Positions 13,178 to 44,121 of a stretch of 64,000 bases of DNA are shown piece by piece. Origin of the DNA: a virus. Under the pieces are notes generated by a model. That model ran no database searches. It was not told where the DNA came from and saw only the letters and a program-made list of their open reading frames with translations. Where the stretch lies: the IMG/VR virus record IMGVR_UViG_3300045988_067909; one strand, given 5' to 3'. Position 1 is the stretch's first letter; the number at the start of each line of letters is the position of its first letter. Position numbers and translations under genes: made by a program.

Positions 13178-13612
13178 ATGAATACTGCTGCCGATGTAGA
13201 AAAAGCTCTCCAAATAGATACCGTACCGTCATTAAATTCAGAAGAAATTCAATATAATGGTAATATAGTAGCCTATCAAGGAGACTATTATATCTTTATC
13301 GACGGTAAATGGTCTAAGTTAGGTAAACAGGTATCATCTAGTACTAGTAGCCTAACTGAAAATGAAATAGAAGATATGGAGCCTGAAGAAATGGATGATA
13401 CTGGTAAACCATACTACAAATCTAGAGTATACTTTTACCCTCTAAATATAATTAAGATAGTAACTGTAATATTCTGTGGTATAGCTTTAATGTATTCTTT
13501 ATTCATTCAATCAGAGACTGTAGCGGCTACACTTGCTGGTGGGTTATTAACCTATTTGAGCCGTGGTAGTTCTGGATCTACTACAAACAATTATCAAAAG
13601 AATGATAAGTAA
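13178..13612 (+). CDS. membrane protein with two C-terminal TM helices; holin-like by position
   Basis: Immediately follows the amidase. Hydrophobic stretches LNIIKIVTVIFCGIALMYSLFI and TVAATLAGGLLTYL. Confidence 0.4.
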   Translation: MNTAADVEKALQIDTVPSLNSEEIQYNGNIVAYQGDYYIFIDGKWSKLGKQVSSSTSSLTENEIEDMEPEEMDDTGKPYYKSRVYFYPLNIIKIVTVIFCGIALMYSLFIQSETVAATLAGGLLTYLSRGSSGSTTNNYQKNDK

Positions 13613-13623
13613 GAAAGATATAA

Positions 13624-13660
13624 GCCCTAATGGTTATATGCCATTAGGGCCATCTTTTGG
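13624..13660 (+). terminator. rho-independent terminator
   Basis: Stem gccctaatgg/ccattagggc with loop ttatat, followed by catcttttgg. Confidence 0.55.
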
Positions 13661-13704
13661 CTTACTTGAACATCCCAGTAATTCTAAAATAGGAGGTTAA
13701 AACT

Positions 13705-27860: not shown

Positions 27861-29084
27861 TTATTTTAAACCAAATGCTTCCATAGGATCCATCTCAACC
27901 ATTCTAACTTGGCTATCATGGAATGCTTTCATGGCAACGTTCTTAAGTTTAGATGCTATTTGTGGAGCAGCAGCACCAATATTCTTTACTCCTAGACGAT
28001 AGAAGATATTACCAGCACACGCATTACAAACACCATTCTCAGCCTCACATAAAGAAGCAAATCTAAACTGTACTGTTTTACCAATATATTGATTCATATT
28101 CTCAGAAGTCAACTCTACCAGTTTATTTCCTTCTTTCATAAAGCAATAGATGTATTCTTTTATATTGTCTTTATTTAGAGTGATTGTAATAGTACGTTTA
28201 GTACCACAGTCACTACCCTTGTCTAATGTCTGAATGTGTTGACATGCTGGCAGTAATAGTTTTTCCCAATAGCCACCAACTTCTGTACGGCTAGCACGAG
28301 AGTAAGGACCTTCGGCTAGAGAGTTAGCAAAGTCAGCATAGTCTTCTTTAGATATACCTGTCATATAGTTAGACATAATGATATTATAACCCTTAGTCGG
28401 ATCTGGGTTTTTAGTAATACCACGAACAACAAACATGTTTTTGAAATGGTTACTCATATTAGATTTAGCACCACTATTATAAGTATCCATAGCTGGGTCG
28501 TCTTTAAGAATCTCTTCAGCTAAGTCTAATAGTTCTTCTTGAATCTTCAATACTATTTTAGGATCTTTAGCATCTAACTCTTTACGATATTTCTTAATAA
28601 GTTCTTCTTTAGCCTTATTGATTTTTGTCGTAATAGTCAATAGTTTCATACTATAACTAGTAGACAATATATTTACATAAGGCATGAACTTTTGACCTTT
28701 CATAACAAAGTCTTGCATAACTTTAAGAGTCTTTCTATTCTCTAGAATAGCATATGAGATCTCTTGCATAATATTACCAACCATCTTCTTGGTAATTGGT
28801 TTATTGATATACCCAAACATATCAAACAAGTCTTTCTCGATGAATACTCTATTGAATACCCATAACCCTACAGTTGTAACAAAAGCATTCTTATTCTTTT
28901 TTCCTTCTGGTCCATATGAGCCAGCTGGAATAGTAACTAAATCATATGTATTGAATCTACGTTTACCGTTAAATTCACCAAACATGCCAATTACTGTAGA
29001 AGTCTTAGCACCCATATCTTGATCTATAGATAGGATATAATCTATATCTTTAGCATTAGTAATTCTATTAGATGTACGTTTCAT
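27861..29084 (-). CDS. multisubunit RNA polymerase beta' fragment: bridge helix, second Zn site and first trigger helix
   Basis: NSGAKSNMSNHFKNMFVVRG resembles E. coli beta' DSGARGS..QIRQLAGMRG. SRASRTEVGGYWEKLL resembles the bridge helix TALKTANSGYLTRRLV. GSDCGTK matches the beta' DDCGT Zn ligand, and CEAENGVCNAC is Cx6Cx2C (E. coli C888/C895/C898). NIGAAAPQIASKLKNVAMKAFH resembles the trigger helix [21 protein letters not shown]. The ORF ends inside the trigger loop. RBS AAGGAGG. Confidence 0.7.
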   Translation of the reverse strand: MKRTSNRITNAKDIDYILSIDQDMGAKTSTVIGMFGEFNGKRRFNTYDLVTIPAGSYGPEGKKNKNAFVTTVGLWVFNRVFIEKDLFDMFGYINKPITKKMVGNIMQEISYAILENRKTLKVMQDFVMKGQKFMPYVNILSTSYSMKLLTITTKINKAKEELIKKYRKELDAKDPKIVLKIQEELLDLAEEILKDDPAMDTYNSGAKSNMSNHFKNMFVVRGITKNPDPTKGYNIIMSNYMTGISKEDYADFANSLAEGPYSRASRTEVGGYWEKLLLPACQHIQTLDKGSDCGTKRTITITLNKDNIKEYIYCFMKEGNKLVELTSENMNQYIGKTVQFRFASLCEAENGVCNACAGNIFYRLGVKNIGAAAPQIASKLKNVAMKAFHDSQVRMVEMDPMEAFGLK

Positions 29085-29202: not shown

Positions 29203-29820
29203 ATGGACTCTAATTTTAATAAAGAAAATAAAGTCTCCTATCAAGAGCTGGCCCCTAGTTTACAGGCGATGCTTGATGGTAAGGCTAGTGTTACAGTTCT
29301 TAATAATCATATTAATGACAATGCACGACATATCACTAACGATGAACGTGCTAAATGGAATGCTACATTACAAGACGCTAATACATGGGCTAAGAACTAT
29401 GTAAATGGTCTTTTAGGTGACTTTGGTGGTCAAGGTGTAACTTTGATGGATGTAGTCAAATCTAAATTAGATAAGACTGAATTCGAAAACTTTAAACGTA
29501 CATTAGCACGTATTGCTTTTACTGGTTCGTATAATGATCTTATTGATAAACCATCTGGTATCTCTTTCTCTGATACTGCAAATAAAGCTTTGAATGCTGA
29601 TCGTGCAACTTTAGCAGATAGAGCTACTGTAGCTGACCGTGCAACTAATGCTGACTTAGCGGAAAATGCTAAACGTGTTGGTGGTATTCGTGTAACTATT
29701 GATGGTACTGCTCCAGCTAACCCTGAAAATAATAAAGAAATCTGGTTCAATACCACAAACTTGACAGTTTACTTCTACGTAAATAATCAATGGAGAATGA
29801 CTCGTTGCGCTGTTGCATAA
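29203..29820 (+). CDS. small tail-fibre-like protein
   Basis: RBS GGAGGAG. Contains HITNDERAKWNAT, the widespread fibre motif ARIAFTGSYNDLIDKPS, and a short ADRAT repeat. Confidence 0.65.
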   Translation: MDSNFNKENKVSYQELAPSLQAMLDGKASVTVLNNHINDNARHITNDERAKWNATLQDANTWAKNYVNGLLGDFGGQGVTLMDVVKSKLDKTEFENFKRTLARIAFTGSYNDLIDKPSGISFSDTANKALNADRATLADRATVADRATNADLAENAKRVGGIRVTIDGTAPANPENNKEIWFNTTNLTVYFYVNNQWRMTRCAVA

Positions 29821-31010
29821 GTCCTTTAGAGGAGACTTTCTACAATCTAACTAACGTGCAACTAATGATGTCAACAGGGTGTAATCTTAGTTGCAGGTAC
29901 TGCTATCAGGATGATAAGAAGAATAAGAATATGTCTAAAGAAGTTATGGAATCTTTTATAGACTTCTTATGTGATACAAATCCTGATGTCCCAGTTTTAA
30001 TAGATTTCTTTGGTGGTGAACCATTAGTAAACTGGCCGATAATGAAATATGGTTTAGAACTAATGGATGATTTAGGTTTAACTGAAAAGAAACTATATTT
30101 TATGGTATCCACTAATGGTACACTTATTACTGATGAGGTAGCTGAATACTTCAGAAAGTATAATGTCCATATCAATATATCTATAGATGGTACACCAGAG
30201 AAACACAATTACGAACGTAATAATTCTTACGATAAAACTATAGAGGGATTACATAAGTTATATGACCATGGTCTTTGTAGAGACATTACTGCTAGACTTA
30301 CATTCCCAAACAATTATTTTGGTAGTATAGAAGAGCATGTAAGAAGTGTATTAAACTTAGGTATCCCTGAAGTTACATTTGCAGCTATCTTAGCTGGTGG
30401 TATAACTGATGAAGAGTTAGCCACTTATGAGGAATCTATGTATAGAACTGCTATACTTATTCTTAAGTATGTAGAATATGGCTTAGCAGTTATTCCTAAG
30501 TATATGAGAAACTTCATAATGATGGAACACATAAATCAAGATTTCAAACCTAGACAACCATGTCATTTTAAAACCAATAGAGGTATTGTAGTAGATACTG
30601 ATGGGGTATTATTCGGATGCTCTATTGTCCCAAATTCAGATTTTAAAGAATATTCTTCTAAAGTGTATTCAGATACCGTAATTGGTAATGTCAAATACGG
30701 TATAGCTTATAATCGGAATATTGGGGACAAATACCCTTGTACTACGGCAAATGCTAAAAATGACTGTATCAATTGTGAAGCCAAGAGTATGTGTTTACCA
30801 TGTGCTATGGAAAATATGCTATCATCAACAAGAGACTATCATTTAGTTGCTGATGATAAATGTAAATTAATTAAGGCTAGATATAGAGTTGCATTACGTA
30901 TTCATAATTGGATACTACGAAATAAATTCGGAAGTGTTGCAATGTCTAGGCTAAAAGAAAATCATCTTCTTGGGGAAGATAAGTATAGCATAAGTTCATT
31001 AATAATATAG
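29790..31010 (+). CDS. radical SAM / SPASM-type enzyme (rSAM-1)
   Basis: CNLSCRYC (CxxxCxxC), FFGGEPL, and a C-terminal Cys-rich CINCEAKSMCLPCAMEN. The true start may be the ATG at about 29866 (MMSTGCNLS...). Confidence 0.8.
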   Translation: MENDSLRCCISPLEETFYNLTNVQLMMSTGCNLSCRYCYQDDKKNKNMSKEVMESFIDFLCDTNPDVPVLIDFFGGEPLVNWPIMKYGLELMDDLGLTEKKLYFMVSTNGTLITDEVAEYFRKYNVHINISIDGTPEKHNYERNNSYDKTIEGLHKLYDHGLCRDITARLTFPNNYFGSIEEHVRSVLNLGIPEVTFAAILAGGITDEELATYEESMYRTAILILKYVEYGLAVIPKYMRNFIMMEHINQDFKPRQPCHFKTNRGIVVDTDGVLFGCSIVPNSDFKEYSSKVYSDTVIGNVKYGIAYNRNIGDKYPCTTANAKNDCINCEAKSMCLPCAMENMLSSTRDYHLVADDKCKLIKARYRVALRIHNWILRNKFGSVAMSRLKENHLLGEDKYSISSLII

Positions 31011-31044
31011 AGTCAGTAACTTTAAGGGGAATTTTAGGAAAGAA

Positions 31045-32367
31045 ATGTTTTTAGAGTTTAAAGAAATAGGGAATGATGTAAGAGAAGTAGTATTCTATCT
31101 TACTAATGATAATAATATTGATTGTGACTATCTACCACCTAAGGGTAGACAATATATGTCTACCAGGGTGATAGATGCTATGATAGAGAAGATTACTAAG
31201 ATCTTTAAGGATTATAGACGTGTATATACTATCACATTCAAAGGTGGAGAACCTTTGATGTGTTGGGATAAGATTGTCTATATCATAGATAAACTAAAAG
31301 CTAATAATGTAATATGTAGATACAAACTATATACGAATCTGACTTTGATGACATTAGCTAAAGCTAAAGTTATTAAAGCTAATGCTATAGATGTAGTAGG
31401 TTATCTTGATGGTGAAGTAGAGCATAATAGTAAACATCGTACTGGGTATAAAGAAGCTATACGTGGACTAACTTGTTTACGTGAACTTAATATACTTAAG
31501 ACACATGTAACTATCCATATGACATTAATGGAAGATACTATTAAATACTTTGAAGATAACTTTGATTTCATTAGTAAGCTTGGAGTAAAGAGTATCTTAT
31601 TTGAACCAGCAGAATCTATAGATATAACTGGTAAATTTAAGACCTCTCTAAAGAAAGCTACTAAGTATGCTTATGAGCAATACTTCAAGTTTACTAAGAA
31701 TAGATTTGATGCATTATATCTTATATCATATTTAGATTATATAGTTCCAGATTATAAAGATACATCTGCTGATAGTAACTTCTTTACATCTGGACAACTA
31801 TATGTATCGCCATATGGTAAGTTATATGCTAATAGATTGGCATTGGTTAATGGTATTAGGCATATTGGTAATGTATACAGTAACCAATTAGTATTTCCTG
31901 ATACTATTGATATCCATAGCCACCCAAAATGTCGTGGATGTGTAGCTAAGAATGTATGTCAATCCTGTAGTGACATTGCTACATTCGATTCTAAATATCC
32001 GCATCAAAATATATGTCAACTAAATAGAGCTATTGCTGAAGTCGCAAGAGAGTTTATGGAAGACTGGAAATATAATACTTCTGGAATCTACAATAAGAAG
32101 ATTAAAAAGAATATTGTAGAGTCTACTAGTATTATGAATAGTCTTTATAATAAGCTTAAAAGAACCTATACTATTACTGACGGAAATAGGCCAACCGTTA
32201 AGTCTTTTATGACAGCATATGGTAGAGATTATATTTGTGAGCGCAAAGAGCCTCCTGAAAAGTTGAGAAAACTATATGAAAGATTTAGAATGATTCTCGG
32301 AGGAAACAATGGAAAACTTTACAACAGTGTACAGCAAACCACAAGCTGTAACAATGCTACTGACTAA
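31045..32367 (+). CDS. radical-SAM-like paralog with degenerate cluster motif (rSAM-2, probably catalytically altered)
   Basis: FKGGEPLM and the C-terminal CRGCVAKNVCQSC are kept, but the CxxxCxxC position reads NNIDCDYL, so only one of the three Cys remains (compare TNDCNLACSYC in rSAM-3). Confidence 0.6.
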   Translation: MFLEFKEIGNDVREVVFYLTNDNNIDCDYLPPKGRQYMSTRVIDAMIEKITKIFKDYRRVYTITFKGGEPLMCWDKIVYIIDKLKANNVICRYKLYTNLTLMTLAKAKVIKANAIDVVGYLDGEVEHNSKHRTGYKEAIRGLTCLRELNILKTHVTIHMTLMEDTIKYFEDNFDFISKLGVKSILFEPAESIDITGKFKTSLKKATKYAYEQYFKFTKNRFDALYLISYLDYIVPDYKDTSADSNFFTSGQLYVSPYGKLYANRLALVNGIRHIGNVYSNQLVFPDTIDIHSHPKCRGCVAKNVCQSCSDIATFDSKYPHQNICQLNRAIAEVAREFMEDWKYNTSGIYNKKIKKNIVESTSIMNSLYNKLKRTYTITDGNRPTVKSFMTAYGRDYICERKEPPEKLRKLYERFRMILGGNNGKLYNSVQQTTSCNNATD

Positions 32368-33661
32368 TGATTGTAACTTAGCATGTAGCTACTGCTTTGA
32401 ATCTAATAAGGGTAAAGACTATATGCCAAAAGAAATGGCATTAGATATTCTTAAGGCTACATACAACCAAGTAGACCCAATGGCTGGTATATTCACTTTA
32501 AACATGTTTGGTGGAGAACCATTAATGAATTGGGAGACTTTTAAAGCTGTATGTGATTATGTCTTAGAGAATAACCTTAAGATTCGTATTACTGCAACAA
32601 CTAACCTGACTTTACTTACTGATGAAATGATTGATTATATCGATGAGCTATCTATTCCTGTATTAGTATCTGTAGATGGTATCAAAGAAGTTCATGATAA
32701 GCATAGATGTAATAGTTTCGATAAAGTTATTGAGAATATGAAAAAGCTTATTGATAGAGACTTAGGATATCTTATTGAAGCACGTATGACAGTTGCTCCA
32801 GATACAGCTAAATATATGTATGAATCAGTTAAGATGCTAGTTGACTTAGGTATTAATAATATTGCTAATGTACCAGCATCTGACTTAGAATGGGATGCTC
32901 AATCTATTCAAGATTACAAAGATAATTACGAGAAGATTCTTGATATGTATATCGATATACTGAACGATGAATCTAATAAACGTAATATCTCTCTATATAA
33001 AGTAGACCAAGCATTAAATCTAGCATTAGAGCCTATTAAAGAAGATACTTCTATGTGTAATATTGGCAACCCTAGATGGGTTATTGTAGACTGGAAAGGT
33101 GATATTTGGCCTTGTCCTGATTATCCGACTACAGATAATGTAGATTTGATTGCTGGTAAGATTGGCAACTTCTATACTGGTGTAGATGAAACTAAAGTTG
33201 ACCCTAAGCCTATGGTTGCTACATATGAACTAGAACGTTGTAAGGGATGTGAAGCTATCTCTATTTGTAAGTCTGGTTGTCCTTATGAGAACTATACTAA
33301 GAATGGTAAGTTTAATGAACCAACCATTGGTTACTGCACTTTACAGAAAGCTTTTGTAGAAATCATTAAAGCTTATCAAGATAAGTTACTTGAAGCAACT
33401 AATATCCGTTCTAGACAGCTAAATGTCTTAATTGAAAATCTTAAAGTCAAGAAGTACTATGATGAGAAAGTTAAGACTATTAGTATTACTGATAGAGAAT
33501 TTGGCGTAAGATTAAATCATTTCGTTGAGAAGTATGAGAATCTAAATAATAAAGGTAATGTATTACCTAGTTTTGATACATATTTTAAACATGAGCTAAT
33601 GACTGTGAATGCTATTATTGCAGCATTGGTTGGTAAAAAAGTTGAGTTTGTGGAGGATTAA
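32309..33661 (+). CDS. radical SAM / SPASM-type enzyme (rSAM-3)
   Basis: GGAGG sits 6 nt upstream of the ATG. CNLACSYC, MFGGEPLMN, C-terminal CKGCEAISICKSGCPYEN. Overlaps the upstream gene by 59 nt. Confidence 0.8.
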   Translation: MENFTTVYSKPQAVTMLLTNDCNLACSYCFESNKGKDYMPKEMALDILKATYNQVDPMAGIFTLNMFGGEPLMNWETFKAVCDYVLENNLKIRITATTNLTLLTDEMIDYIDELSIPVLVSVDGIKEVHDKHRCNSFDKVIENMKKLIDRDLGYLIEARMTVAPDTAKYMYESVKMLVDLGINNIANVPASDLEWDAQSIQDYKDNYEKILDMYIDILNDESNKRNISLYKVDQALNLALEPIKEDTSMCNIGNPRWVIVDWKGDIWPCPDYPTTDNVDLIAGKIGNFYTGVDETKVDPKPMVATYELERCKGCEAISICKSGCPYENYTKNGKFNEPTIGYCTLQKAFVEIIKAYQDKLLEATNIRSRQLNVLIENLKVKKYYDEKVKTISITDREFGVRLNHFVEKYENLNNKGNVLPSFDTYFKHELMTVNAIIAALVGKKVEFVED

Positions 33662-33667
33662 TTTTAC

Positions 33668-35386
33668 ATGCCAACACAAGTAAAAAGAGGGAATACTGTT
33701 GAATACAGTATTCCCGATAAAATAGACAGAACCAAAGATAATATAGTAGCTAAAGCACCATTAGTTGCTATAGCTAGTGCAATAGCTGTCAATCTTAAAG
33801 AAGCTAAAGCATTAGAACGTGTACGATCTGGTTTTGGTTCTCCGGAGAATCGTATACGACGTGTAGTTGATGCTGGTGATGAAGTACAACGATTTAGTGA
33901 TAGTATCGTTATAGATGAATCACTTAAAGCATCTAGTATGAATATGCTATTAGGTATGGCATCTGAATTGATAAACAGTACAGTTGGTATTAGTGAATCA
34001 ATGGAGGGATATACTGTAGTTAAATATACCACACCTGGTAGATTTACTTGGAATGCTCCTAGGGGGACTAAGACAGTATTACTAGGTTTATGTGGTGGTG
34101 GTGGATCCATGGGTGCTAGTGGTGAATCTACGAGTTTCAATGAAGCCATTGTTAATGGTGGTAATAATATCTTTATTGATAACTTGCTAGCTGGTGTAAC
34201 TGGTTATCAAGTATCTTTATTTGAAAGCAGATTTGGTTACTATGGTAGACCAGAATCTTCTACTGATTGGTATACTAATCGTTCTGGTATGCACTGGGGT
34301 AGACAGAACTCGGGATTACCTGGTGATTTTATGACTACAGTTTTAAACGTTAAAAGTGGTTCTGCTCAATCTATTGTAGTCGGTGGTCCTGGTGCACCAA
34401 GATGGTATGGTGATGCTAATAGAAAATCTACTCAAGGGTTTGTATACTTAGCATATAAAACAGATGGTGATGATGAACCATATGGTTTAGATAAAGTATA
34501 TACTGTACCTGGCGACTATGAATATACAGTACCAGCAGGTGTACGTAAAATATCTGTAGTCTTAATTGGTGGTGGTGCATTTACTATTAGTGGTACTGTC
34601 GAAAATAAAGTTGAAATCTATGAATATATGGGTCGCTATATCAAACAAGGTGATTTTAGAAATTTCCCAGCTCAAAGCTATAAGCATCTAGATAGAGTTC
34701 TTGATGAATTAAACTATACTGGACCATTTACTAGATATGATAATCCACGTCAAGGTAGTTGGAAACAAACTAGATATAGGGCTCCACATAATTACCAAGT
34801 AGTAGGCTATATTCCATCACACTTACCTGGTGCTAATGGTGAACAATCTAAGTTTGGTGATATCGTAGCTAATGGTGGCGACCGAGATAATATCTCTTAC
34901 ACCACAGATACTGGTTGGAATCTTAATTTTGATGCACAAACAGGACCAACAGGGCGTGGTATGTTTAAAGATAGCATTAACCAAAAAGTTGGCGGTCCAG
35001 GTGAATATAAACGTGTAGTATTAGATGTATATCCTGGGCAAAAGTTTAATGTACATGTAGGACGTGGTGCAAAATACGAATCTGATGGTTCTTTTAAAGC
35101 TAGTGATGGTGCTGTTGGTATAATGAACGGTGATTATCGTGAAACGTCTAGTGGTTTATTTAGAGCTATGGCTCCGGGAGACTTGTATACTGGTGCGACA
35201 TTGAATCTTATGATTAGTAACTTACATGTTTTAAATAAAGCATTCAATGATTTAGAAAATAAGTATTGGGAAAATGACTTATGTAAGACATCTTGTCAAG
35301 TATCTTGCCAGGCTTCTTGTCAAATCGCATGTCAAAACTGTCAATATGATACTTGCCACAATCAAAATTGTGGGGGGTGGTCGTAA
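33668..35386 (+). CDS. large Gly-rich-module protein with C-terminal Cx3C 'CQ-ladder' (candidate rSAM substrate / fibre-like structural protein)
   Basis: Three modules of the type YTTPGRFTWNAPRGTKTVLLGLCGGGGS / YTVPGDYEYTVPAGVRKISVVLIGGGA / GPGEYKRVVLDVYPGQKF. C-terminal tail: LCKTSCQVSCQASCQIACQNCQYDTCHNQNCGGWS. Confidence 0.65.
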   Translation: MPTQVKRGNTVEYSIPDKIDRTKDNIVAKAPLVAIASAIAVNLKEAKALERVRSGFGSPENRIRRVVDAGDEVQRFSDSIVIDESLKASSMNMLLGMASELINSTVGISESMEGYTVVKYTTPGRFTWNAPRGTKTVLLGLCGGGGSMGASGESTSFNEAIVNGGNNIFIDNLLAGVTGYQVSLFESRFGYYGRPESSTDWYTNRSGMHWGRQNSGLPGDFMTTVLNVKSGSAQSIVVGGPGAPRWYGDANRKSTQGFVYLAYKTDGDDEPYGLDKVYTVPGDYEYTVPAGVRKISVVLIGGGAFTISGTVENKVEIYEYMGRYIKQGDFRNFPAQSYKHLDRVLDELNYTGPFTRYDNPRQGSWKQTRYRAPHNYQVVGYIPSHLPGANGEQSKFGDIVANGGDRDNISYTTDTGWNLNFDAQTGPTGRGMFKDSINQKVGGPGEYKRVVLDVYPGQKFNVHVGRGAKYESDGSFKASDGAVGIMNGDYRETSSGLFRAMAPGDLYTGATLNLMISNLHVLNKAFNDLENKYWENDLCKTSCQVSCQASCQIACQNCQYDTCHNQNCGGWS

Positions 35387-36561
35387 TGAAGATATTTATG
35401 ACAGATGAATTATATGACTATATTAAGACTCGACCAGATTTTAATGAATTCCAAACAGCTTATGATAAACTTACTTATGGTGAAACTATAAGAGAAGAGC
35501 TAGAAGCACAGTATAATTCTATGACTTCAGGAGAATTAGCTGAGTATCTTAATAAAGTCAAATCTGAAGTAGCAGATAGACCAGATTTAGTTAGATATAT
35601 AAACTATACATCTGATATATCAGTACAGACTCTAATGACTATAGTTAATGATACTAGTCTACCTAAAAAAGATAAGATGTATGCATTACTAAGATTATTC
35701 ACTTATAGTTATGCTGATGGTATCCATTTTGAATATGTAGTTGATTTTGTCACTATGTATAATGCTATGAGTGCTGAAGAGTTGGCTACATTACCTAGCT
35801 ATATTCATGTAAACTATATTGAATTGAATGGCTATTATTTGTATAAGACTATGCAAGATAACCATGAGACTTTCGATACAACTGCTTATGATAAACTAGT
35901 AGAGCATTATAAAACAGTCAAAGAGAAAGTTAAACCATATTATAGTGATGCTGATGTAATAGATAATATATGGCTTGAAGTCCAAGCTTACTTTATTAGA
36001 CTATTACATAATGACTTAACTAATACTGCTATAGATATCATCTTAGAACGTATTAATCTAGACCATGAAAAGCTAACCAATAAATACAAATATGTATCTT
36101 TAGGTGTCATGTGGCTATATGAAATGTATATGGAAACTAGTTTTAATGCTAGTAACTATCATGGGTTTATCTTATGGGCATTTAAACTATTTAGATATAT
36201 AGATAGTGCATTAGCTGATCATGATAACCTATTTGATGGTTTAAGATTCTATGATAAAGTTAATATTATAGCATTTGCTATTATAGTTAGACGTCTTCTT
36301 AATATTAAAGAAGTCTTCATTTCAATAGTTCAATTACGTTTATTTAACTTAGACTTTACTGATGAATTATTCTTAGCTGGTGAGGGTGTAACTAATGTAA
36401 ATCTTACATCTAAGCCATCTAGAGATGCTATGTTGTCTTTTAAGAATTACGTAGACGTATGGTTTAATAATAATAAGCCTAAGCTAATTCAGCTTAGAGA
36501 TGATTCGGCAACTATGGAAGACTTCCGTGCTATTATTCGTGATTACTTACATTCAGTCTAG
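35386..36561 (+). CDS. hypothetical helical protein
   Basis: I prefer the ATG at 35386 (MKIFMTDELYDYI), with GGGGGGTGG upstream and a TAATG overlap with the upstream stop, over the track's 35353 start. Confidence 0.5.
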   Translation: MKIFMTDELYDYIKTRPDFNEFQTAYDKLTYGETIREELEAQYNSMTSGELAEYLNKVKSEVADRPDLVRYINYTSDISVQTLMTIVNDTSLPKKDKMYALLRLFTYSYADGIHFEYVVDFVTMYNAMSAEELATLPSYIHVNYIELNGYYLYKTMQDNHETFDTTAYDKLVEHYKTVKEKVKPYYSDADVIDNIWLEVQAYFIRLLHNDLTNTAIDIILERINLDHEKLTNKYKYVSLGVMWLYEMYMETSFNASNYHGFILWAFKLFRYIDSALADHDNLFDGLRFYDKVNIIAFAIIVRRLLNIKEVFISIVQLRLFNLDFTDELFLAGEGVTNVNLTSKPSRDAMLSFKNYVDVWFNNNKPKLIQLRDDSATMEDFRAIIRDYLHSV

Positions 36562-36577
36562 GAGGTGATAGTTAATT

Positions 36578-37780
36578 ATGGCAGATATAGAATTTAATAT
36601 GAATAACCGCTATAGATGGACTATCCCTGATATTCCATATGTAGTTAAGAAAGATAATAAAACAACAACTGAGATACCTAATAATGTAGATATAGCTTTT
36701 GATAGACACTTTGTGGATACTACAGTACGTGGATTAGTAGAATCCTATCAAACTTGTGTAGCTATATATGCTGAAATGAAACAGTTGTCATATAATCCAA
36801 CTGTAGATGCTAAGGGTAGAAACTATTGGGAATCTAGTACACCAAAGTATCAACAAAACCAAGAAGCTAATATAGATACAGATCACTCTAATAAGATGAA
36901 CTTTAACAATCCATCTTCTGGAGATCATTTACATCCATCTCGTATTGTAGATCTAAATCAACTATTATCTTCTAGTACACAGGTAGAGAGTAATACATTA
37001 GAGAATATATTAGACTTCTATGGTGTATATCATCCAAGTATTGGTGGTGGGTCTACTAATATAACTGAACGTATCGTTTTAAGTAATGATAATGCAGAGC
37101 CACCTAAGATGGAACTTGTAGATGCATTTAGAGATGCTAATGGTAATACTAAGTTCCCAGCTAGAACTGATGGTCAAAGTTATAATCAACCAATTAAACT
37201 AGAATGGTTTGCTAGACTTAGAGAGAATCTAATTAATACATCTAACTTCTTCATTAAGAATAATGGTAAGTTTTATGATGTAAATGGATATTGTGTTGTA
37301 GGATGTCAAGTAAACTGTCAGTCCACATGTCAATTGACTTGTCAACATAGACAATTGGGTGATGATTTCTTAAATAAAACATTCTTAGAGTGGAATGAAG
37401 ATCTACAAACTATATACAAACTAGGTTGGCAAACATATGACCACCCAGACCATGACCATAATGTATACATATTCTTCTATGACCCATGGGGTAGACGTTG
37501 GATGTATCGTAATACTAGATACTATGGAGATGGTTATTATCTATTACCAGATCAAAATGATATATACTCTATACGTCCTACACATCATGCGGATGATAAC
37601 ATGAATCTAGAGTGGTATCCTGGTGCGCCATATGATAACCCTAAACAATATCATTGGGAGATGGTACGTAATATACATACAGGTAAAAATGACTTGGTTA
37701 ATAAACTAGACCCACATTGGAATGATGCTGGTAATTACTATGTATCAGATGGTTATTGCCATAGCTGTGATAATAGATAG
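36578..37780 (+). CDS. Cys-ladder protein B1 (GCQVNCQSTCQLTCQHRQLGDDF; C-terminal CHSCDNR)
   Basis: RBS TAGGAGGTGATAG. Tandem paralog of 37797..38921; the first ~65 aa and the central FPARTDGQSYNQPIKLEWFARLRENLINTSNFFIKNNGKFYD are near-identical in both. Confidence 0.7.
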   Translation: MADIEFNMNNRYRWTIPDIPYVVKKDNKTTTEIPNNVDIAFDRHFVDTTVRGLVESYQTCVAIYAEMKQLSYNPTVDAKGRNYWESSTPKYQQNQEANIDTDHSNKMNFNNPSSGDHLHPSRIVDLNQLLSSSTQVESNTLENILDFYGVYHPSIGGGSTNITERIVLSNDNAEPPKMELVDAFRDANGNTKFPARTDGQSYNQPIKLEWFARLRENLINTSNFFIKNNGKFYDVNGYCVVGCQVNCQSTCQLTCQHRQLGDDFLNKTFLEWNEDLQTIYKLGWQTYDHPDHDHNVYIFFYDPWGRRWMYRNTRYYGDGYYLLPDQNDIYSIRPTHHADDNMNLEWYPGAPYDNPKQYHWEMVRNIHTGKNDLVNKLDPHWNDAGNYYVSDGYCHSCDNR

Positions 37781-37796
37781 GAGGTGATAGTTAATT

Positions 37797-38921
37797 ATGG
37801 CAGATATAGAATTTAATATGAACGATCGCTATAAATGGACTATCCCTGATATCCCATATATAGTGAAGAAAGATAACAAAATCACTACAGAAATCCCAGC
37901 TGATGTAGATATAGCTTTTGATAGACACTTTGTGGATACTACTGTACGTGGATTAGTAGAATCCTATCAAACTTGCGTAGCTATATATGCTGAGATGAGT
38001 CAGCTGGTATATAATCCACAAACCAACCGTCAAGGTAATAACTACTGGGATGGCAATAATAGATTTAGACAAAACCAAGAGAATAATGTAGACTTAGACC
38101 ATGCTAATAAGATGAACTTTACTAATCCACATAAAGAACCACATAGTTCAGGTACACGTATAGCAAATCTAAATTCTATACTCAATGATCCAGATGGTGT
38201 TAGAGAAGATAATCTAGAATCTATACTAGATTATTATAGAACCTATAATTCTGATACTAATGGTGGTATATCTGTAGACTTGTCTATGAATATATTAAAT
38301 AATGGATTAAAAGCAGAAGCACCAGCATATATACAAGTAGATGCATTTAGAGATGCTAATAGCAATACTAAATTCCCTGCTAGAACTGATGGTCAAAGCT
38401 ATAATCAACCTATAAAATTGGAATGGTTTGCTAGACTACGTGAGAATCTCATTAATACATCTAACTTCTTCATTAAGAATAATGGTAAGTTTTATGATAA
38501 TGGTGGTTTCTGTGTTATAGGTTGTCAGGTTAACTGTCAATCTACATGTCAATTGACCTGCCAGCATAGACAGCTAGGTGACGATTTCTTAAATTATACT
38601 AAGCTTGAACGTTATGAGCATGCTGAGATTATTAAGAAATTAGGTTGGCCAGACTTCCGTGGACGTAATGGTAATGAGTCATTAAACTATTATGACCCCT
38701 GGGGACGTATATGGCGTTGGTATGTATTTGCTAAACAAGGTTATGGTGCATACTATTTAGGTCATGAACCGCATGACAATTATTGGTATTTTGAAAATAA
38801 TATCGGTTGGTATCCTGGTGCTCCGTTTGATAGACCTGCTGGTGTAAACCCAGATGGTAGCATACCAACACCAAAACGTGATCCTGATTATGATCCTTGT
38901 GCTGGTTGTGAAAATAGATAG
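37797..38921 (+). CDS. Cys-ladder protein B2 (GCQVNCQSTCQLTCQHRQLGDDF; C-terminal CAGCENR)
   Basis: The ~45 nt around the start (taggaggtgatagttaattatggcagatatagaatttaatatgaa) are identical to B1; the C-terminal third diverges. Confidence 0.7.
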   Translation: MADIEFNMNDRYKWTIPDIPYIVKKDNKITTEIPADVDIAFDRHFVDTTVRGLVESYQTCVAIYAEMSQLVYNPQTNRQGNNYWDGNNRFRQNQENNVDLDHANKMNFTNPHKEPHSSGTRIANLNSILNDPDGVREDNLESILDYYRTYNSDTNGGISVDLSMNILNNGLKAEAPAYIQVDAFRDANSNTKFPARTDGQSYNQPIKLEWFARLRENLINTSNFFIKNNGKFYDNGGFCVIGCQVNCQSTCQLTCQHRQLGDDFLNYTKLERYEHAEIIKKLGWPDFRGRNGNESLNYYDPWGRIWRWYVFAKQGYGAYYLGHEPHDNYWYFENNIGWYPGAPFDRPAGVNPDGSIPTPKRDPDYDPCAGCENR

Positions 38922-38926
38922 AATAT

Positions 38927-39967
38927 ATGAATAACGATTATAAAGAAATATACCTAATGCTTACTGAGGCTTGCCCTAATAGATGTGAGTATTGTTATAT
39001 TAAGGGTAGAGATAACCCTAAGAGTATGACATTTGAACAGATTGAAGAAATAATACGTGTAGAAAAACCTACACGTATTATATTCTTTGGTGGTGAACCA
39101 TTGCTCAAGATAGATCTAATAGAGCAAGTATTAGAGAAGTATTATGGTAAGATTAAATTCCAAGTAGTCACATCTACTGTAGTTAATTTTAAAGAGTTTA
39201 TTGAATTAGATAAGAAGTATCCATTTAGTGAGATACAGTTATCATGGGATGGTTTCTCAGATAAGAACCGTGTTGATACTTGTGGTAATTCTATATCTAA
39301 GACAGTATATGACAATATCCAATATGCTATATCTCAAGGAACTAAGTTTGATGTAAAGTGTGTTATTGGTAATGAGAATATACAAATCTTTGATGAGATA
39401 CATGAGACTTTCGTAGAATGGAAGAAGAAGTATAATGTCAATGGTGAGTTTGTATTAGCACATAGACCATACTATGCACCAGAATATTTAGAGTTATTCC
39501 GTGAGAAGTATAAGAAGACATTCACTCTAGAGAGAATGTATATGGAACATATGAATCGTATTATAGCTATCTTACAAGATGATGATAACTTTGGTTCATG
39601 TGATGTCGGTAAGTATAAGGTTATTACACCATATGGTGAAGAATCTTACTGTACAGCATTATCTCAAGAAGAGACTGAGTTTGATAAGGATATCTTACAA
39701 GCACCATGTACATCTCCAGATTGTAAGATATGTAAATACAAATGTATTTGTGATGGTGGGTGTAGATATGAACGCTATGCTCAGTTTGGTGATAAGTGGA
39801 GAGAAAACCACTTAGATGCTACATGTCAAATGTCTGAAATCATATATACTACTATTAGAGAATGGATAGACTCTTTAGATGATGATGACTATGAAAAACT
39901 ATTAGCTTACGTTAGAAGCTATAAAGATCATTTAGAACGATACCATCAGGAGGTTACTCACGAATGA
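38927..39967 (+). CDS. radical SAM / SPASM-type enzyme (rSAM-4)
   Basis: CPNRCEYC, FFGGEPLL, C-terminal CTSPDCKICKYKCICDGGCRYE. Confidence 0.8.
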   Translation: MNNDYKEIYLMLTEACPNRCEYCYIKGRDNPKSMTFEQIEEIIRVEKPTRIIFFGGEPLLKIDLIEQVLEKYYGKIKFQVVTSTVVNFKEFIELDKKYPFSEIQLSWDGFSDKNRVDTCGNSISKTVYDNIQYAISQGTKFDVKCVIGNENIQIFDEIHETFVEWKKKYNVNGEFVLAHRPYYAPEYLELFREKYKKTFTLERMYMEHMNRIIAILQDDDNFGSCDVGKYKVITPYGEESYCTALSQEETEFDKDILQAPCTSPDCKICKYKCICDGGCRYERYAQFGDKWRENHLDATCQMSEIIYTTIREWIDSLDDDDYEKLLAYVRSYKDHLERYHQEVTHE

Positions 39968-41214
39968 TTGACTTTTTACCTGAGCGTATATATAACGCTA
40001 TTAAAGAAGACCAAGAATATGAAAATATCTTAATGTATAGAGAGAATGAATTCCGTAAGCTAATTACGTTCAAAGAATTCTGTCTATATGATAACGTCTT
40101 CATTAAGAATAAAACAAAATGGGAATACTTTACTGGGACTTTACAGAGCCTGGTTAAAAAGTATTGTCCAGAATATATGACTGAACTAGATATTGCTATC
40201 TCTCCTAGGAAAACTAGAGCAGATTATCTCAATATCTACTACAATGATACTAAGATTGACTTTGAAACTAAGCTATTCGTATTATCTAAAATAGCTGATA
40301 TGTCTAAGTATAAAGATGATTACTTTAACTATCTTGGTATGTATTGTAACTTATATGAAAATATTGCTAAGTCTGATGCAGAGAAATACTCTGCTATCAT
40401 TCATTATACATATATACAATATGCTACATTAGCATATGCTAAGACATTGCCTAAAGATTCACAATGTATCTTTAAGATTAAGAAATATCTAGATACATTA
40501 CGTTTTGGATATGGTAATTTATCTGCTGATGCTTTAAACGTTATCTATATCAATACTTTTGTACAATGTATCACATTAGTTCTAGAAGAACTTGAGAATG
40601 ATATGTTAGTTAAAGAGATGCTAGATGATGTACAGTTACCAGAATCACTATTTGAAGTCCAATATGGTAACTATGGTATTACTAGATTAGCATTATGGTA
40701 TAAACTATTTGAGATTAATTTCTCAGTACGAGACTTTGCTAAATGTAAAGAGCTATTCAATAAGATGGTAGATTTAATTGATGGTAATCTTAAAGAACCA
40801 CAATTACTATTCCGTGGTTTATACGTATATAACCAAAATAATATTCCATATTTTTATGGGATATTAAGATTCGTATGTCGAATGCTCGGTGCATATGACC
40901 CAACTCTTACATTATCTAATCTCTCCGAAGAAGATAAACAATTTATCTCCATATATGATTGGGATTCTAGTGACCTATTGATTTCTGATAGACTTACTTC
41001 GGAGATATTCTATAACTATGCTCTTAGAACTAACTTATGGTTCTATAATTCTGCTGAAGCACTTAAAGCATATAAATATTTCGTTTATGAACAAGCTGGA
41101 TTAGAATTACCATCCGAAGATAGAATTCTTAAACCATTAGATGATTTCTTAAGTTCTTTCTTAGATGATGAACCAGCTGAAGAAGTTGTACCAAACCCTA
41201 AGGGTGATAAGTAA
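39964..41214 (+). CDS. hypothetical helical protein
   Basis: ATGA overlap with the upstream stop; 416 aa; no motif recognised. Confidence 0.5.
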   Translation: MIDFLPERIYNAIKEDQEYENILMYRENEFRKLITFKEFCLYDNVFIKNKTKWEYFTGTLQSLVKKYCPEYMTELDIAISPRKTRADYLNIYYNDTKIDFETKLFVLSKIADMSKYKDDYFNYLGMYCNLYENIAKSDAEKYSAIIHYTYIQYATLAYAKTLPKDSQCIFKIKKYLDTLRFGYGNLSADALNVIYINTFVQCITLVLEELENDMLVKEMLDDVQLPESLFEVQYGNYGITRLALWYKLFEINFSVRDFAKCKELFNKMVDLIDGNLKEPQLLFRGLYVYNQNNIPYFYGILRFVCRMLGAYDPTLTLSNLSEEDKQFISIYDWDSSDLLISDRLTSEIFYNYALRTNLWFYNSAEALKAYKYFVYEQAGLELPSEDRILKPLDDFLSSFLDDEPAEEVVPNPKGDK

Positions 41215-42392
41215 TGTATGATCGTATAGATGCGGTTACATTTAAGATATCTGAATATTGTAATCTAGACTGTGTATACTGTTTTCAAAAATATGATACT
41301 AAGACTAGATATGATGGGTTTACTGATTTTGATCAGCTAGTTAAGTTCTTAAGAAAGATGCCATTAGGGGATACTTTAGAATTCAAAGTTACTGGTGGAG
41401 AATCTAGTCTTCATTGTGATAAGATTAGAAGTGCTTATAGAAAGCTTAAGAAACTAGAGCGTTATAAGAACGTAAACATAGAGTTTACGACCATTTCTAA
41501 TGGCACCAATATAGATGGGTTGACAGAACTCTGGAATGATGGTATACTAAATCCATGGGGATGTAAGATATCCTGGGATGGGGTTTATAGTGCATCTAAA
41601 TCACGTAAAGTAAAAAATAATTCTTATGATGATGAGTATTTTAAAGATATCATTCGTAAGCTAGGTAAGTCTGACTATAGAGATAAAGTCTTAGTTAGAA
41701 CTGCTTTAACACCAGATACTGTAGACGAACTATATCAAGCATATAGATTTGCTATAGATAATGGCTGTACTAAATGGGAATATTATTTACTTAGTGATTG
41801 TGATGAATACAAAGATCCAAAGTTCATAGAGAGACTAAGACCACAACTATATCATATATACAATGATAGTAAAGACTTTCCTGAATCTATTGTAGCTAAT
41901 CTAGATTCTATGGCTTATGTACATACAGACTTATCTGATGCTACAAAGTTAAGATGTATTAGCTGTAGACATCTTGGTCATTTCTTGCATATAGATATAC
42001 ATGGTAATATATACCCTTGTGGATACTTCTCTGATGATTCCTATTATGATGACCAAACATTATCTATAGGGGACATTTACTCGGGTTTAGATAAATATAA
42101 ATTAGAGAAGTTTTGTGATGAGTATAATAATCTTCCCATGTGTAGCATACAAGATGGGTGTGAATGTTTACATTGTTTTGAATGTCCTGCTATTAGTCAC
42201 CTATACTACAACAATATGCAGTATAAGCTAGGACAACAATGTAAGATTAGACACTTAGAACTAGACTTGTATAGAGAGATATTCTCAGACTACACATTCG
42301 ATATGTCTCGTATACAAAGAAACTTTAATGTGTATAATGAACTTGAGTACCACAAGTGTGGATTATGTGAATCCCTTCCATTCAAAGAATAG
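41214..42392 (+). CDS. radical SAM / SPASM-type enzyme (rSAM-5)
   Basis: CNLDCVYC, VTGGESSL, C-terminal Cys-rich CSIQDGCECLHCFECP. TAATG overlap with the upstream gene. Confidence 0.75.
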   Translation: MYDRIDAVTFKISEYCNLDCVYCFQKYDTKTRYDGFTDFDQLVKFLRKMPLGDTLEFKVTGGESSLHCDKIRSAYRKLKKLERYKNVNIEFTTISNGTNIDGLTELWNDGILNPWGCKISWDGVYSASKSRKVKNNSYDDEYFKDIIRKLGKSDYRDKVLVRTALTPDTVDELYQAYRFAIDNGCTKWEYYLLSDCDEYKDPKFIERLRPQLYHIYNDSKDFPESIVANLDSMAYVHTDLSDATKLRCISCRHLGHFLHIDIHGNIYPCGYFSDDSYYDDQTLSIGDIYSGLDKYKLEKFCDEYNNLPMCSIQDGCECLHCFECPAISHLYYNNMQYKLGQQCKIRHLELDLYREIFSDYTFDMSRIQRNFNVYNELEYHKCGLCESLPFKE

Positions 42393-42660: not shown

Positions 42661-44121
42661 ATGGCAAAACTACATGATACCAGTGTAACTGGTAATATTA
42701 ATGCCTCGGGTACTATATATGCTAATGGTAAGGCAGTTGCACCATTAGATCATACTCATTCAGTACAAGCTATAACTGGTTTAGACAAATCAGTAAAAGA
42801 TATAGTAAACGCTACACCTGTAGCTAATGCAACAAATGCAACACAATTAGCAGGTAAGACAGCAGACCAATATGCACTAAAGAGTGATTTAACTGCTTTA
42901 GGTGAACGCTTAAATCAAATTCAGTATTCTATAACTAAAGCATTTAAGTGTCCTAACTACGTATCTTTTAGTTACGATAATAACTTTGTTAAAATTACAT
43001 TGAGTGATAGAATGGCTAATATCACAAATAAAGCAATTATTGTCGAAGATGATACTATGAAGTTTGTAATCAATTTATTTAGTCAATCCAATTTTAGTCT
43101 CTATAATAAGATAATTATTAAAGATAAGGTTGATGTTGATAAATACTACGACTACAGTGTTACTATGCCTACCATATACAGAGTTTCTGATACTACTTTT
43201 ATTGTGGGTGGTATTTGTACAACTAACGGTAATTTATTAGCATCCATCACTCTACAAAGTAATGAACCAATCACTGCTGATGATTTTACTATTAGTGCTA
43301 GAGATCAAGCATATAATCTAAATAATGCAAGTGCCAAAAAGGTTGTATCTAGTAGAGATCTTATTCCTCACTTTGCCGAAAAGTATATAGATACACAAAA
43401 ATTTGGTTATCTATATACTATTAAAAAACCAGGTACTTATGATAGACGTTTAGATCTTCATTTAGACTCTACAACTTCTACTGTATATATTTATACTTTA
43501 AATCCTATGAGTAATATGGCTTTAGGGGTTAATGGTAATGGTATAGTTTCATATAATGCTGCAAATGTTAGAAATGAACCTAGCGTTGCAATTAGCGGAC
43601 TAACTGTATATATTGACTTATCCACAATATCAGATGATTTTGTTATTTTGGGTGATTGTACTGCTACTTATAGCACAACAGGTTTGCTCAGCTCTACTCC
43701 ACCAAAAGATCTACCACAATCTATGGGTAGTAGTATTGATGAAAACCGTGCGTTATCTTTCAATAAAGTCTTAGATTTATTGGGTCGTAGTGTAACCATT
43801 AATGGTGCGATTTACGATACTAAATATGATATAAATATAAACAGATTATTGACATTTCCTGCAACGTATATTAATGACCAATCAGTCACTATAGGCAGCA
43901 TGTATAATACTATTACAGCTAGAGCTAATGGTGGTAACGCTGATACAGTTGGTGGATTATCACCTAACTCGTTTATCACTACTGATAATTTAGCACGTAA
44001 ATACTACTCTAAAGTTGCAGTATACGACAATGATAATCATCTTATTCATCCAGATGGTACTGAAGAATGGATCGAATATCAAAGACCACAAGCGTCTGAA
44101 GATAATATGGATCACTTATAA
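42661..44121 (+). CDS. tail fibre protein
   Basis: N-terminus MAKLHDTSVTGNINASGTIYANGKAVAPLDHTHS, the classic fibre N-terminal/HTH motif type; Asn/Thr/Ser-rich remainder. Confidence 0.7.
   Translation: MAKLHDTSVTGNINASGTIYANGKAVAPLDHTHSVQAITGLDKSVKDIVNATPVANATNATQLAGKTADQYALKSDLTALGERLNQIQYSITKAFKCPNYVSFSYDNNFVKITLSDRMANITNKAIIVEDDTMKFVINLFSQSNFSLYNKIIIKDKVDVDKYYDYSVTMPTIYRVSDTTFIVGGICTTNGNLLASITLQSNEPITADDFTISARDQAYNLNNASAKKVVSSRDLIPHFAEKYIDTQKFGYLYTIKKPGTYDRRLDLHLDSTTSTVYIYTLNPMSNMALGVNGNGIVSYNAANVRNEPSVAISGLTVYIDLSTISDDFVILGDCTATYSTTGLLSSTPPKDLPQSMGSSIDENRALSFNKVLDLLGRSVTINGAIYDTKYDININRLLTFPATYINDQSVTIGSMYNTITARANGGNADTVGGLSPNSFITTDNLARKYYSKVAVYDNDNHLIHPDGTEEWIEYQRPQASEDNMDHL

Follow-up and report, generated by a model that had tools for sequence, protein, structure and literature searches.

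Radical-SAM/SPASM enzymes and cysteine-glutamine ladder proteins in a jumbo-phage gene cluster: a possible ranthipeptide-type maturation system for full-length phage proteins

The window examined here, that is, the whole 64-kb stretch of DNA that was analyzed (64,000 nucleotides; IMG/VR record IMGVR_UViG_3300045988_067909), derives from an uncultivated jumbo phage and carries a cluster of five radical S-adenosylmethionine (SAM) enzyme homologs (rSAM1 to rSAM5), three proteins with regular cysteine ladders (A, B1, and B2), and two helical proteins (H1 and H2). The observations concern the family and motifs of the enzymes, the linkage of the genes, their conservation, and selection, and from them we infer a modification of the ladder proteins; with slightly more credence than doubt, the cluster is read here as a ranthipeptide-type maturation system (of the SCIFF, PapB, or QhpD type) that would act on full-length phage proteins. 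The enzyme class is already known, as is the logic of an enzyme paired with a Cys-rich target. Four elements are new: full-length phage-specific substrates, an eight-Cys five-Gln module, a multi-enzyme setup that comprises helical partners and enzymes lacking an RRE (an N-terminal PqqD-like leader-recognition domain of about 90 amino acids, aa), and a viral, fiber-associated context. No description of a phage system of radical-SAM enzymes and CQ-ladder proteins was found by full-text searches of the literature, where the radical-SAM genes of phages CP220 and RP12 are noted as present and nothing more. The genes of the cluster and the two that flank it are as follows (window coordinates, strand, description).

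29203..29820, +: small fiber-like protein of 205 aa, with weak PHROG tail and tail-fiber matches and shared N-terminal motifs
29790..31010, +: rSAM1, radical-SAM/SPASM enzyme, an extra lineage-specific paralog of rSAM3 (PF04055 79 bits; PapB model 165 bits)
31045..32367, +: rSAM2, degenerate radical-SAM homolog without CX3CX2C that keeps GGEP and CX2CX5CX2C
32309..33661, +: rSAM3, core radical-SAM/SPASM enzyme (PapB model 199 bits; SCIFF maturase 130 bits)
33668..35386, +: ladder protein A, 572 aa, with the C-terminal eight-Cys CQ-ladder module at residues 539-572 (window 35282-35383)
35386..36561, +: H1, Cys-free helical partner, with a 1-nucleotide (nt) overlap between its start and the stop codon of A
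36578..37780, +: ladder protein B1, 400 aa, with an internal CQ ladder at residues 239-256 (window 37292-37345)
37797..38921, +: ladder protein B2, 374 aa, tandem paralog of B1 (ladder at window 38511-38564)
38927..39967, +: rSAM4, core radical-SAM/SPASM enzyme (PF04055 67 bits; CX3CX2C at residue 16; SPASM Cys pattern)
39964..41214, +: H2, second helical partner, overlapping rSAM4 by 4 nt and rSAM5 by 1 nt
41214..42392, +: rSAM5, core radical-SAM enzyme with a variant Cys-rich C-terminus (PF04055 48 bits; CX3CX2C at residue 16; GGES)
42661..44121, +: hypervariable protein closing the module, 52-99% identical among otherwise 99%-identical phages

All ten open reading frames (ORFs) of the cluster were confirmed at these positions on the + strand and are tightly packed; the five enzyme ORFs, taken as consecutive in an earlier sequence-only reading of the window, are not all consecutive. 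The assignment of these five to the radical-SAM/SPASM type in that reading held up. PF04055 is matched by rSAM1, rSAM3, rSAM4, and rSAM5 at 48-79 bits, above its gathering score of 29.5 bits, and rSAM2 falls just under that score with 28.4 bits. The PapB ranthipeptide maturase model (NF047865) is the top NCBIfam model for every one of the five, with 165, 68, 199, 59, and 88 bits for rSAM1 to rSAM5 (E = 6e-19 for rSAM2), scores that all lie below its cut-off of 340 bits, so that none of the enzymes counts as a member of this family. The next-ranked NCBIfam models are those of the SCIFF maturase, QhpD, the CXXX-repeat maturase, CcpM, and anSME; cyclophane-forming and sactipeptide maturases also occur among the matches, as does phrog_1802, which is matched by all five enzymes. 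As had been read from the letters, the motif scan found CX3CX2C in the ORFs starting at 29790 (at residue 31 of rSAM1), 32309, 38927, and 41214 and none in that at 31045. The GGEPL-type motif claimed for all five stood in part: GGE is present throughout, as GGEP in four enzymes and as GGES in rSAM5.

The SPASM region was judged by a C-terminal seven-Cys motif (C-x9-15-G-x4-C ... C-x2-C-x5-C-x3-C ... C) together with a model match. The Cys pattern is complete in rSAM1, rSAM3, and rSAM4, and the comparison with TIGR04085 (cut-off 27 bits) that had been proposed as a check gave a passing score for rSAM3 (45.3 bits), scores below the cut-off for rSAM4 (23.5 bits) and rSAM1 (18.0 bits), and no match at all for rSAM5, which has a variant Cys pattern. 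No match of the cluster enzymes to PF13186 was reported at E <= 0.1. For the C-terminal domains of rSAM1 and rSAM5, the best matches are to CXXX-repeat maturase models, in the case of rSAM5 TIGR04115 and TIGR04119. Placement of the cluster enzymes in the peptide- or protein-modifying SPASM radical-SAM clade is supported by these profile and motif comparisons.

Among solved structures, rSAM3 comes closest to the SCIFF maturase CteB (5WGG), to which it aligns over CteB residues 97-444, and 4K36 (anSME) follows as the second-best PDB match. Alignments of the phage enzymes start at CteB residue 97, at position 91-94 of the QhpD profile, and at position 97 of the SCIFF-maturase profile, and the radical-SAM motif begins as early as residue 16-31 of the phage proteins. 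Because the alignments begin only at these positions, the phage enzymes are devoid of an RRE domain. In rSAM2, the three SAM-cluster cysteines are absent both in the window and in the related clade 2, and the first half of the SPASM motif has been lost too; this homolog is probably non-catalytic. Its conservation in both clades under purifying selection, with a ratio of nonsynonymous to synonymous substitution rates (dN/dS) of 0.078, therefore suggests a maintained pseudo-enzyme, possibly serving as a substrate-binding subunit.

The substrates would be members of a phage-specific ladder family, represented here by A, B1, and B2. The regular Cys ladders described in these three proteins are real and were quoted exactly: a six-frame scan of the whole window for ORFs of at least 60 aa with at least three consecutive Cx3C units returned A, B1, and B2 and no others. 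More had gone unperceived: the ladder belongs to a longer, eight-Cys module at the C-terminus, and the system is widespread among related giant phages. The consensus of the module is C-x3-CQ-x2-CQ-x2-CQ-x2-CQ-x-C-x4-CH-x-Q-x-C-GGWS, usually placed at the exact C-terminus, and a typical family member ends in ...W[WF]DxN[GDN][YL]-C-x2-S-CQV[AS]-CQx[SA]-CQLA-CQS-C-x3-T-CH[ND]QNC-GGWS-COOH. A profile search with the module against 1.84 billion representative proteins returned 44 clusters at 50% identity; at 90% identity there are more than 180, and the family is common in metagenomic giant-phage genomes. Most members comprise 170-220 aa within an overall range of about 170-570 aa, and some are longer and carry inserted domains. 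The size of 370-570 aa first given for the putative substrates fits the three proteins of the window, the usual substrate of the family being about 200 aa. An 18-sequence alignment at about 25% identity has as its invariant columns exactly eight Cys, five Gln, and one His, and the Cys and Gln at ladder positions are retained in 28-30 of 30 representatives; with these 30 taken into account, the invariant set is eight Cys, four Gln, and one His, the fifth Gln being present in 28 of them. The common layout is an N-terminal domain (M..RG...Y..P ... NP..YR, with most members starting M..RG...Y..P), a variable middle, a helix (NL...N...WWDxN[GDN]Y), and the Cys-Gln ladder; inspection of the N-termini of A, B1, and B2 by eye, without a predictor run, disclosed no signal peptide.

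By its sequence, protein A is a member of this family with a large Gly-rich middle: a conserved N-terminal domain is followed by a variable Gly-rich region with a swappable cassette and by the C-terminal module, which is the best-conserved part even down to its one distant relative (P0031, 36% identity). The cassette, at about residues 323-385 (window about 34634-34822), is swapped, a 33-aa insertion included, between otherwise 99%-identical phages (P0024, L003, L005), and the segment is absent from P0031. Three Gly-rich modules had been proposed in A; two YTxPG...GGG(G/A) modules are clear (residues 121-148 and 278-304) and the third is not, and the match to Gly_rich_2 is sub-threshold (E = 0.0023). 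The proposal that B1 and B2 are tandem paralogs is borne out by their 61% identity. Both carry an internal four-unit ladder followed by a 140-aa domain, and the terminal C-x4-CH-x-Q-x-C knot is missing from the B-type; the C-terminus of B1 is an aromatic-rich domain ending in CxxCDNR, and the C-terminal domain of B2 is of a different type. Relatives of B1 and B2 are confined to the phage group of the window (11 clusters), with a B-type subtype elsewhere (P0064, P0069), and B2 is found in clade 1 only, clade 2 having a single B. Longer ladders with at least nine consecutive C-x-x-x units, for example CKTSCQLQCQLKCQRACQLTCMTSCQTQCQLQCQ, occur in other members (L114 61-957, L116 757-1767, P0068). 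The number of repeat units is therefore evolvable.

Gene linkage strongly ties the enzymes to the ladder proteins. A ladder-family member is encoded in 128 IMG/VR stretches, and annotation of 84 loci with the window proteins as queries revealed a recurring order: the 29203 fiber-like gene, rSAM3, the ladder gene, H1, rSAM4, H2, one or two rSAM5 genes, an optional second rSAM3-like and ladder gene pair, and the 42661 gene. The co-occurrence of ladder and radical-SAM genes that had been put forward as a check was found in all related lineages: wherever upstream sequence is available, the neighbor immediately upstream of the ladder gene is an rSAM3 ortholog. A script counted this adjacency in 61 of 77 loci; the 16 exceptions are start-codon artefacts, and the true figure is taken as 77 of 77. 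The same adjacency is seen in the matches among binned species genomes, of which there are 5 in 185,579, all of them contigs of metagenome-assembled genomes (one of 283 kb); the ladder family is therefore essentially phage-specific. A minimal version of the cluster with an unchanged order is carried by L032, the contig that encodes the 36%-identical relative of A; it consists of an RNA polymerase (RNAP) beta gene on the minus strand, a small fiber-like protein, rSAM3, A, H1, a 196-aa protein with a terminal ladder, rSAM4, H2, and rSAM5. Related lineages carry three to five radical-SAM enzymes beside the ladder proteins. Of these, rSAM3, rSAM4, and rSAM5 form separate orthologous groups retained in all lineages (rSAM4 orthologs with E down to 3e-50; one or two rSAM5 orthologs per lineage), and L032, L092, and the 237-kb phage group have no rSAM1. 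In several lineages (L038 16780-19200 and similar loci), a second rSAM3-like gene is paired with a gene for a 400-aa ladder protein at the downstream end of the cluster, and such pairs show duplication of an enzyme-substrate unit. Gain of the extra rSAM3-like rSAM1 and of the probably dead copy rSAM2 would have taken place in the lineage in which the ladder proteins also multiplied. One lineage has a gene for an HNH endonuclease that separates the ladder gene from rSAM4 (L093 10328-11197).

This linkage bears on the view that the ladder remains unmodified and forms a structural or redox module based on metal, Fe-S, or disulfides, with the enzymes serving another target (DNA, a cofactor, or a protein) and being linked to it by co-expression alone. 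Eight Cys and an invariant His could bind metals, and the jumbo phages RP12 and CP220 hold multi-radical-SAM clusters without ladder proteins. Such a view is nevertheless very improbable in the face of the strict rSAM3-ladder adjacency, which extends to the duplicated pairs, and of the best matches of every enzyme to peptide maturases, including those of the rSAM1 and rSAM5 C-termini to maturases of CXXX-repeat targets; in addition, a Gln beside each Cys corresponds to no known metal-site signature, and AlphaFold2 yielded no confident compact metal-site fold.

Selection was gauged by dN/dS between the two clades closest to the window. The core enzymes have the lowest values (rSAM5 0.041, rSAM3 0.048, rSAM4 0.060), followed by H2 and rSAM2 (0.078 each), A (0.128), H1 (0.135), rSAM1 (0.148), and B1 (0.211), and the highest value of the region is that of the 42661 gene (0.282). 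Protein identity between the clades is 94-99% for rSAM3, rSAM4, and rSAM5 versus 86-89% for the RNAP subunit. Cassette swaps among otherwise 99%-identical phages affect A, B2, and 42661.

The chemistry known from related enzymes offers a model for the phage system. SPASM enzymes link a Cys sulfur to the beta or gamma carbon of Thr (SCIFF), Asp (freyrasin, made by PapB), Asn (NxxcA), or Asp and Glu (QhpC); QhpD acts on the quinohemoprotein amine dehydrogenase QHNDH, and anSME acts on whole sulfatases, so that RRE-less SPASM enzymes can modify entire proteins (PMC8326336). In the phage, the anciently diverged, RRE-less enzymes rSAM3, rSAM4, and rSAM5 would each cleave SAM at the CX3CX2C cluster, and the resulting radical step would abstract a hydrogen from a side-chain carbon. 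That carbon would then be joined to a ladder Cys held at an auxiliary cluster, and repetition of this reaction would produce a stack of thioether staples. The invariant Gln residues would be the likeliest acceptors, by analogy with the Cys-Glu link in QhpC and the Cys-Asn link in NxxcA, and a Cys-Gln thioether, which would be new chemistry, is possibly the type of link formed. The retention of three conserved enzymes suggests three sub-reactions, and a candidate division of labor is between the repeated CQ units and the terminal C-x4-CH-x-Q-x-C knot.

It is also conceivable that a different radical chemistry operates on the ladder, such as Cα-thioether (sactionine) formation, C-C or C-O cross-linking, epimerization, or conversion of Cys to formylglycine. 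The chemistry of the SPASM clade is diverse, the scores of the phage enzymes all lie under family cut-offs, maturases of the anSME, cyclophane-forming, and sactipeptide types are among their matches, and three distinct conserved enzymes suggest more than one type of reaction. We nonetheless regard this as unlikely, considering that thioether formers (PapB, the SCIFF maturase, QhpD, and the CXXX-repeat family) give the best alignments, which are also the most complete, and that invariant Cys, the thioether donor, dominates the substrate.

The thioether-forming maturation favored here shares features with several known systems and differs from each of them. The SCIFF system (CteA/CteB and Tte1186a/Tte1186; TIGR03973/TIGR03974) likewise has a SPASM enzyme adjoining a Cys-rich target in which the spacing is ...SCQxxC...; CteB is the nearest structure to rSAM3, and a thioether to a side-chain carbon is its known chemistry (PMC8326336). 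The SCIFF target is, however, a six-Cys peptide of about 45 aa from Clostridia that is served by a single RRE-containing maturase, whereas the phage system has targets of 170-570 aa, an eight-Cys five-Gln module, and two helical partners beside three to five enzymes without an RRE. The SCIFF core CQTSCQSACKTSC (L033, L034) resembles the phage ladder, and the SCIFF model gives recurrent sub-threshold matches on it; for A, these are 15.9 bits with PF13165 and 14.1 bits with TIGR03973, at residues 539-559 only and below the cut-offs of 27 and 50 bits, so that A is not a member. Freyrasin, with its six CxxxD thioethers, resembles the phage case in that one PapB enzyme, the source of the top model (NF047865), processes evenly spaced Cys repeats, but the phage ladder has a Gln beside each Cys instead of an Asp or Glu acceptor, and its substrate is a large protein.

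The closest functional analogy is that of QhpD and QhpC, in which several Cys-Asp and Cys-Glu thioethers are placed in a protein subunit that stays in a larger assembly; the score of rSAM3 against TIGR03906 is 127 bits (cut-off 453). QhpC is, by contrast, a subunit of a bacterial periplasmic enzyme, outside any phage context, with one maturase and acidic acceptors. The CXXX-repeat peptide system, reportedly described by Haft and Basu in 2011 (TIGR04114, TIGR04115, and TIGR04119), has a tandem Cxxx target and maturase models that match the C-termini of rSAM1 and rSAM5, but it concerns short bacterial peptides, is a bioinformatic prediction alone, and is approached by the phage proteins with scores below cut-offs: B1 reaches 13.4 bits against TIGR04114 and 13.9 bits against TIGR04118 (cut-offs 20 and 35), and A and B2 have no match to either model. 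Like the phage enzymes, anSME is an RRE-less SPASM enzyme and modifies a full-length folded protein; it differs in that it turns one Cys or Ser of a CxPxR motif into formylglycine, with no cross-link and no ladder. The capsid chainmail of phage HK97, formed by autocatalytic Lys-Asn isopeptide bonds with no dedicated enzyme, is a comparable post-translational covalent stabilization of a virus structural protein, but it is non-radical and enzyme-free.

Other phage radical-SAM clusters, namely those of Ralstonia phage RP12, Campylobacter phage CP220, and Phass-1, were considered as instances of the same system and rejected, as they contain no CQ-ladder proteins. In Phass-1 (L031, OQ749652; genetic code 15), an unannotated 78-aa ORF with a Cys-rich tail, ...CNTCNVGCDIQCRTCITCNSCKDRSC..., lies just downstream of a radical-SAM gene (13444-13677), and the two look like a classical phage-borne pair for a peptide made on the ribosome and modified after translation (RiPP). 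Two records named 'Bacteriophage sp.' (MT835472, MT835702) encode canonical SCIFF peptides, GGCGECQTSCQSACKTSCTVGNQ.CE, directly upstream of a SCIFF-type maturase (L033 14417-14629 and L034 1002-1157), and these genes may be phage-carried or may represent bacterial contamination.

The likeness to SCIFF raises the question of whether the ladder protein is itself a RiPP precursor with a giant leader, in which the N-terminal 160-540 residues would be the leader and the cross-linked C-terminal ladder would be freed as a diffusible SCIFF-like peptide, acting as a signal or as a toxin at lysis. The ancestral ladder forms the very end of the protein, which is the position of a RiPP core, and is similar to the core of SCIFF, and one family member carries the name 'Six-cysteine peptide SCIFF' in the nr database; Phass-1 pairs its radical-SAM gene with the 78-aa Cys-rich peptide ORF, and SCIFF-derived peptides have been linked to quorum sensing (PMC8326336). 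Several features make such a precursor quite improbable: no lineage has protease, transporter, or immunity genes for it, the supposed leaders bear variable receptor-binding-like inserts and swapped cassettes that are unexpected for a leader, the ladder of B1 and B2 is internal and followed by the 140-aa domain, and the ladder gene is always found among fiber-like genes.

To return to maturation of full-length proteins, H1 and H2 fit the part of partner proteins, as the sequence-only reading had suggested in listing two helical proteins as possible components: they are conserved, translationally coupled, and paralogous, albeit distantly (21% identity, E = 8e-7). Neither has a match in Pfam, NCBIfam, or PHROG, and their longer orthologs are likewise blank in Pfam. 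H1 orthologs come after the ladder gene in most lineages. Because the enzymes have no RRE, H1 and H2 are obvious candidates for substrate presentation, and they would probably stand in for the missing domain in presentation or assembly. A LanC-like cyclase function was rejected for them, since H1 contains no Cys (by eye) and thus has no Cys ligands for a LanC-type Zn site.

The flanking genes, the constant position of the cluster between fiber-like genes, the cassette swaps, and dN/dS values that are the highest in the cluster provide circumstantial support for A, B1, and B2 as virion or fiber proteins. The placement between two fiber genes that had been claimed finds some backing on the left side: the 29203 protein has weak tail-protein matches, shares N-terminal motifs with the fiber-like ORFs at 10490, 13705, 14747, 16069, and 20698, and has an ortholog upstream of rSAM3 in nearly all architectures. 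On the right side, the 42661 protein has no match in fiber or other HMM (hidden Markov model) searches or in phage BLAST searches and is presumed to be a fiber or receptor-binding protein. At least six fiber-like ORFs, with PHROG matches to Collar, head-fiber-like, and tail-fiber families, lie at 10-22 kb of the window. Protein A has weak matches to the tail-protein families phrog_356, phrog_863, and phrog_416 (E = 5e-5 to 1.5e-3), and an insert in another family member, P0089, matches the tail-protein family phrog_17517 (E = 8e-11). Pfam and NCBIfam scans found no protease or transporter gene in the cluster. The product of the system would most likely be a redox-insensitive, protease-resistant, cross-linked tip or stalk of fiber-associated virion proteins, made in an anaerobic host. 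It is tempting to speculate further that the ladder proteins are virion fiber or adsorption proteins whose C-terminal Cys-Gln thioether stack is built by three RRE-less enzymes with helical, chaperone-like partners; this fuller version is tentative and, on balance, doubtful.

A number of observations weigh against the proposed maturation system or its extension to the virion. The enzyme scores lie far under the curated cut-offs of every characterized family, and the chemistry is therefore not transferable with confidence. PapB and QhpD use an acidic acceptor, which the ladder does not conserve, and we know of no precedent for a Cys-Gln thioether. In Pfam and PHROG, none of the structural-protein families is matched above threshold by the ladder proteins, and the role of H1 and H2 is deduced from gene position and conservation. 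AlphaFold2 models of A were poor and reached a mean predicted local distance difference test (pLDDT) score of 31 with a 6-sequence alignment and of 47 with a 30-sequence family alignment (about 50 in the ladder), the confident parts of the latter model being the N-terminal domain (1-105) and the pre-ladder helix (509-533). Foldseek comparison with BFVD gave TM-scores near 0.1, which are treated as uninformative, tail-fiber entries being among the local matches. Nucleotide and protein searches with A, B1, 29203, and 42661 found no relatives among INPHARED phage records, and there is therefore no cultivated relative or virion proteome that could be used.

The phage itself stands apart from isolates. 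The window contains split multisubunit RNAP beta-type genes at 27861-29084 (-) and 58741-60285 (+), whose nearest isolates are AR9/PBS1, Staphylococcus jumbo phages, and phiR1-37, at an identity of just 30-36%; the group is therefore a deep, uncultivated branch. Near-identical metagenomic contigs reach 260-270 kb. A scan for sigma-70 promoters and terminators gave results at chance level, no tRNA genes were found, and an antisense ORF at 33664-34149 (-; 161 aa), wholly inside gene A on the opposite strand, was set aside as probably a shadow ORF rather than a gene. A YadA-type trimeric autotransporter adhesin-like protein with stalk and membrane-anchor domains is encoded at 50501-52282 (+), and in another lineage a 902-aa YadA-like copy with head, stalk, and anchor lies within the ladder/radical-SAM cluster (L096 12325-15030). 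These YadA-like genes point to a diderm host, and the protein may be a phage adhesin or a moron.

To our knowledge, radical-SAM/SPASM maturases have been known almost solely as makers of small bacterial peptides. Here, enzymes of the SPASM type have become fixed in a giant-phage family, where they are paired with full-length phage proteins, and a family of proteins without known function, common in metagenomic giant-phage genomes, is now defined. If the ladder proteins are virion proteins and carry the proposed modification, this would be the first case in which enzymes cross-link a virus structural protein covalently by radical chemistry, and the Cys-Gln link would be the amide counterpart of the Cys-Glu link of QhpC, just as the Cys-Asn link of NxxcA is to Cys-Asp. 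The system would also document RRE-independent recognition via separate helical partner proteins, and its compact 34-residue tag, together with the enzymes, would be a portable means of protein stapling. Viruses would then harden their own proteins by radical chemistry, a strategy that would suit anaerobic, reducing habitats in which disulfides are unreliable.

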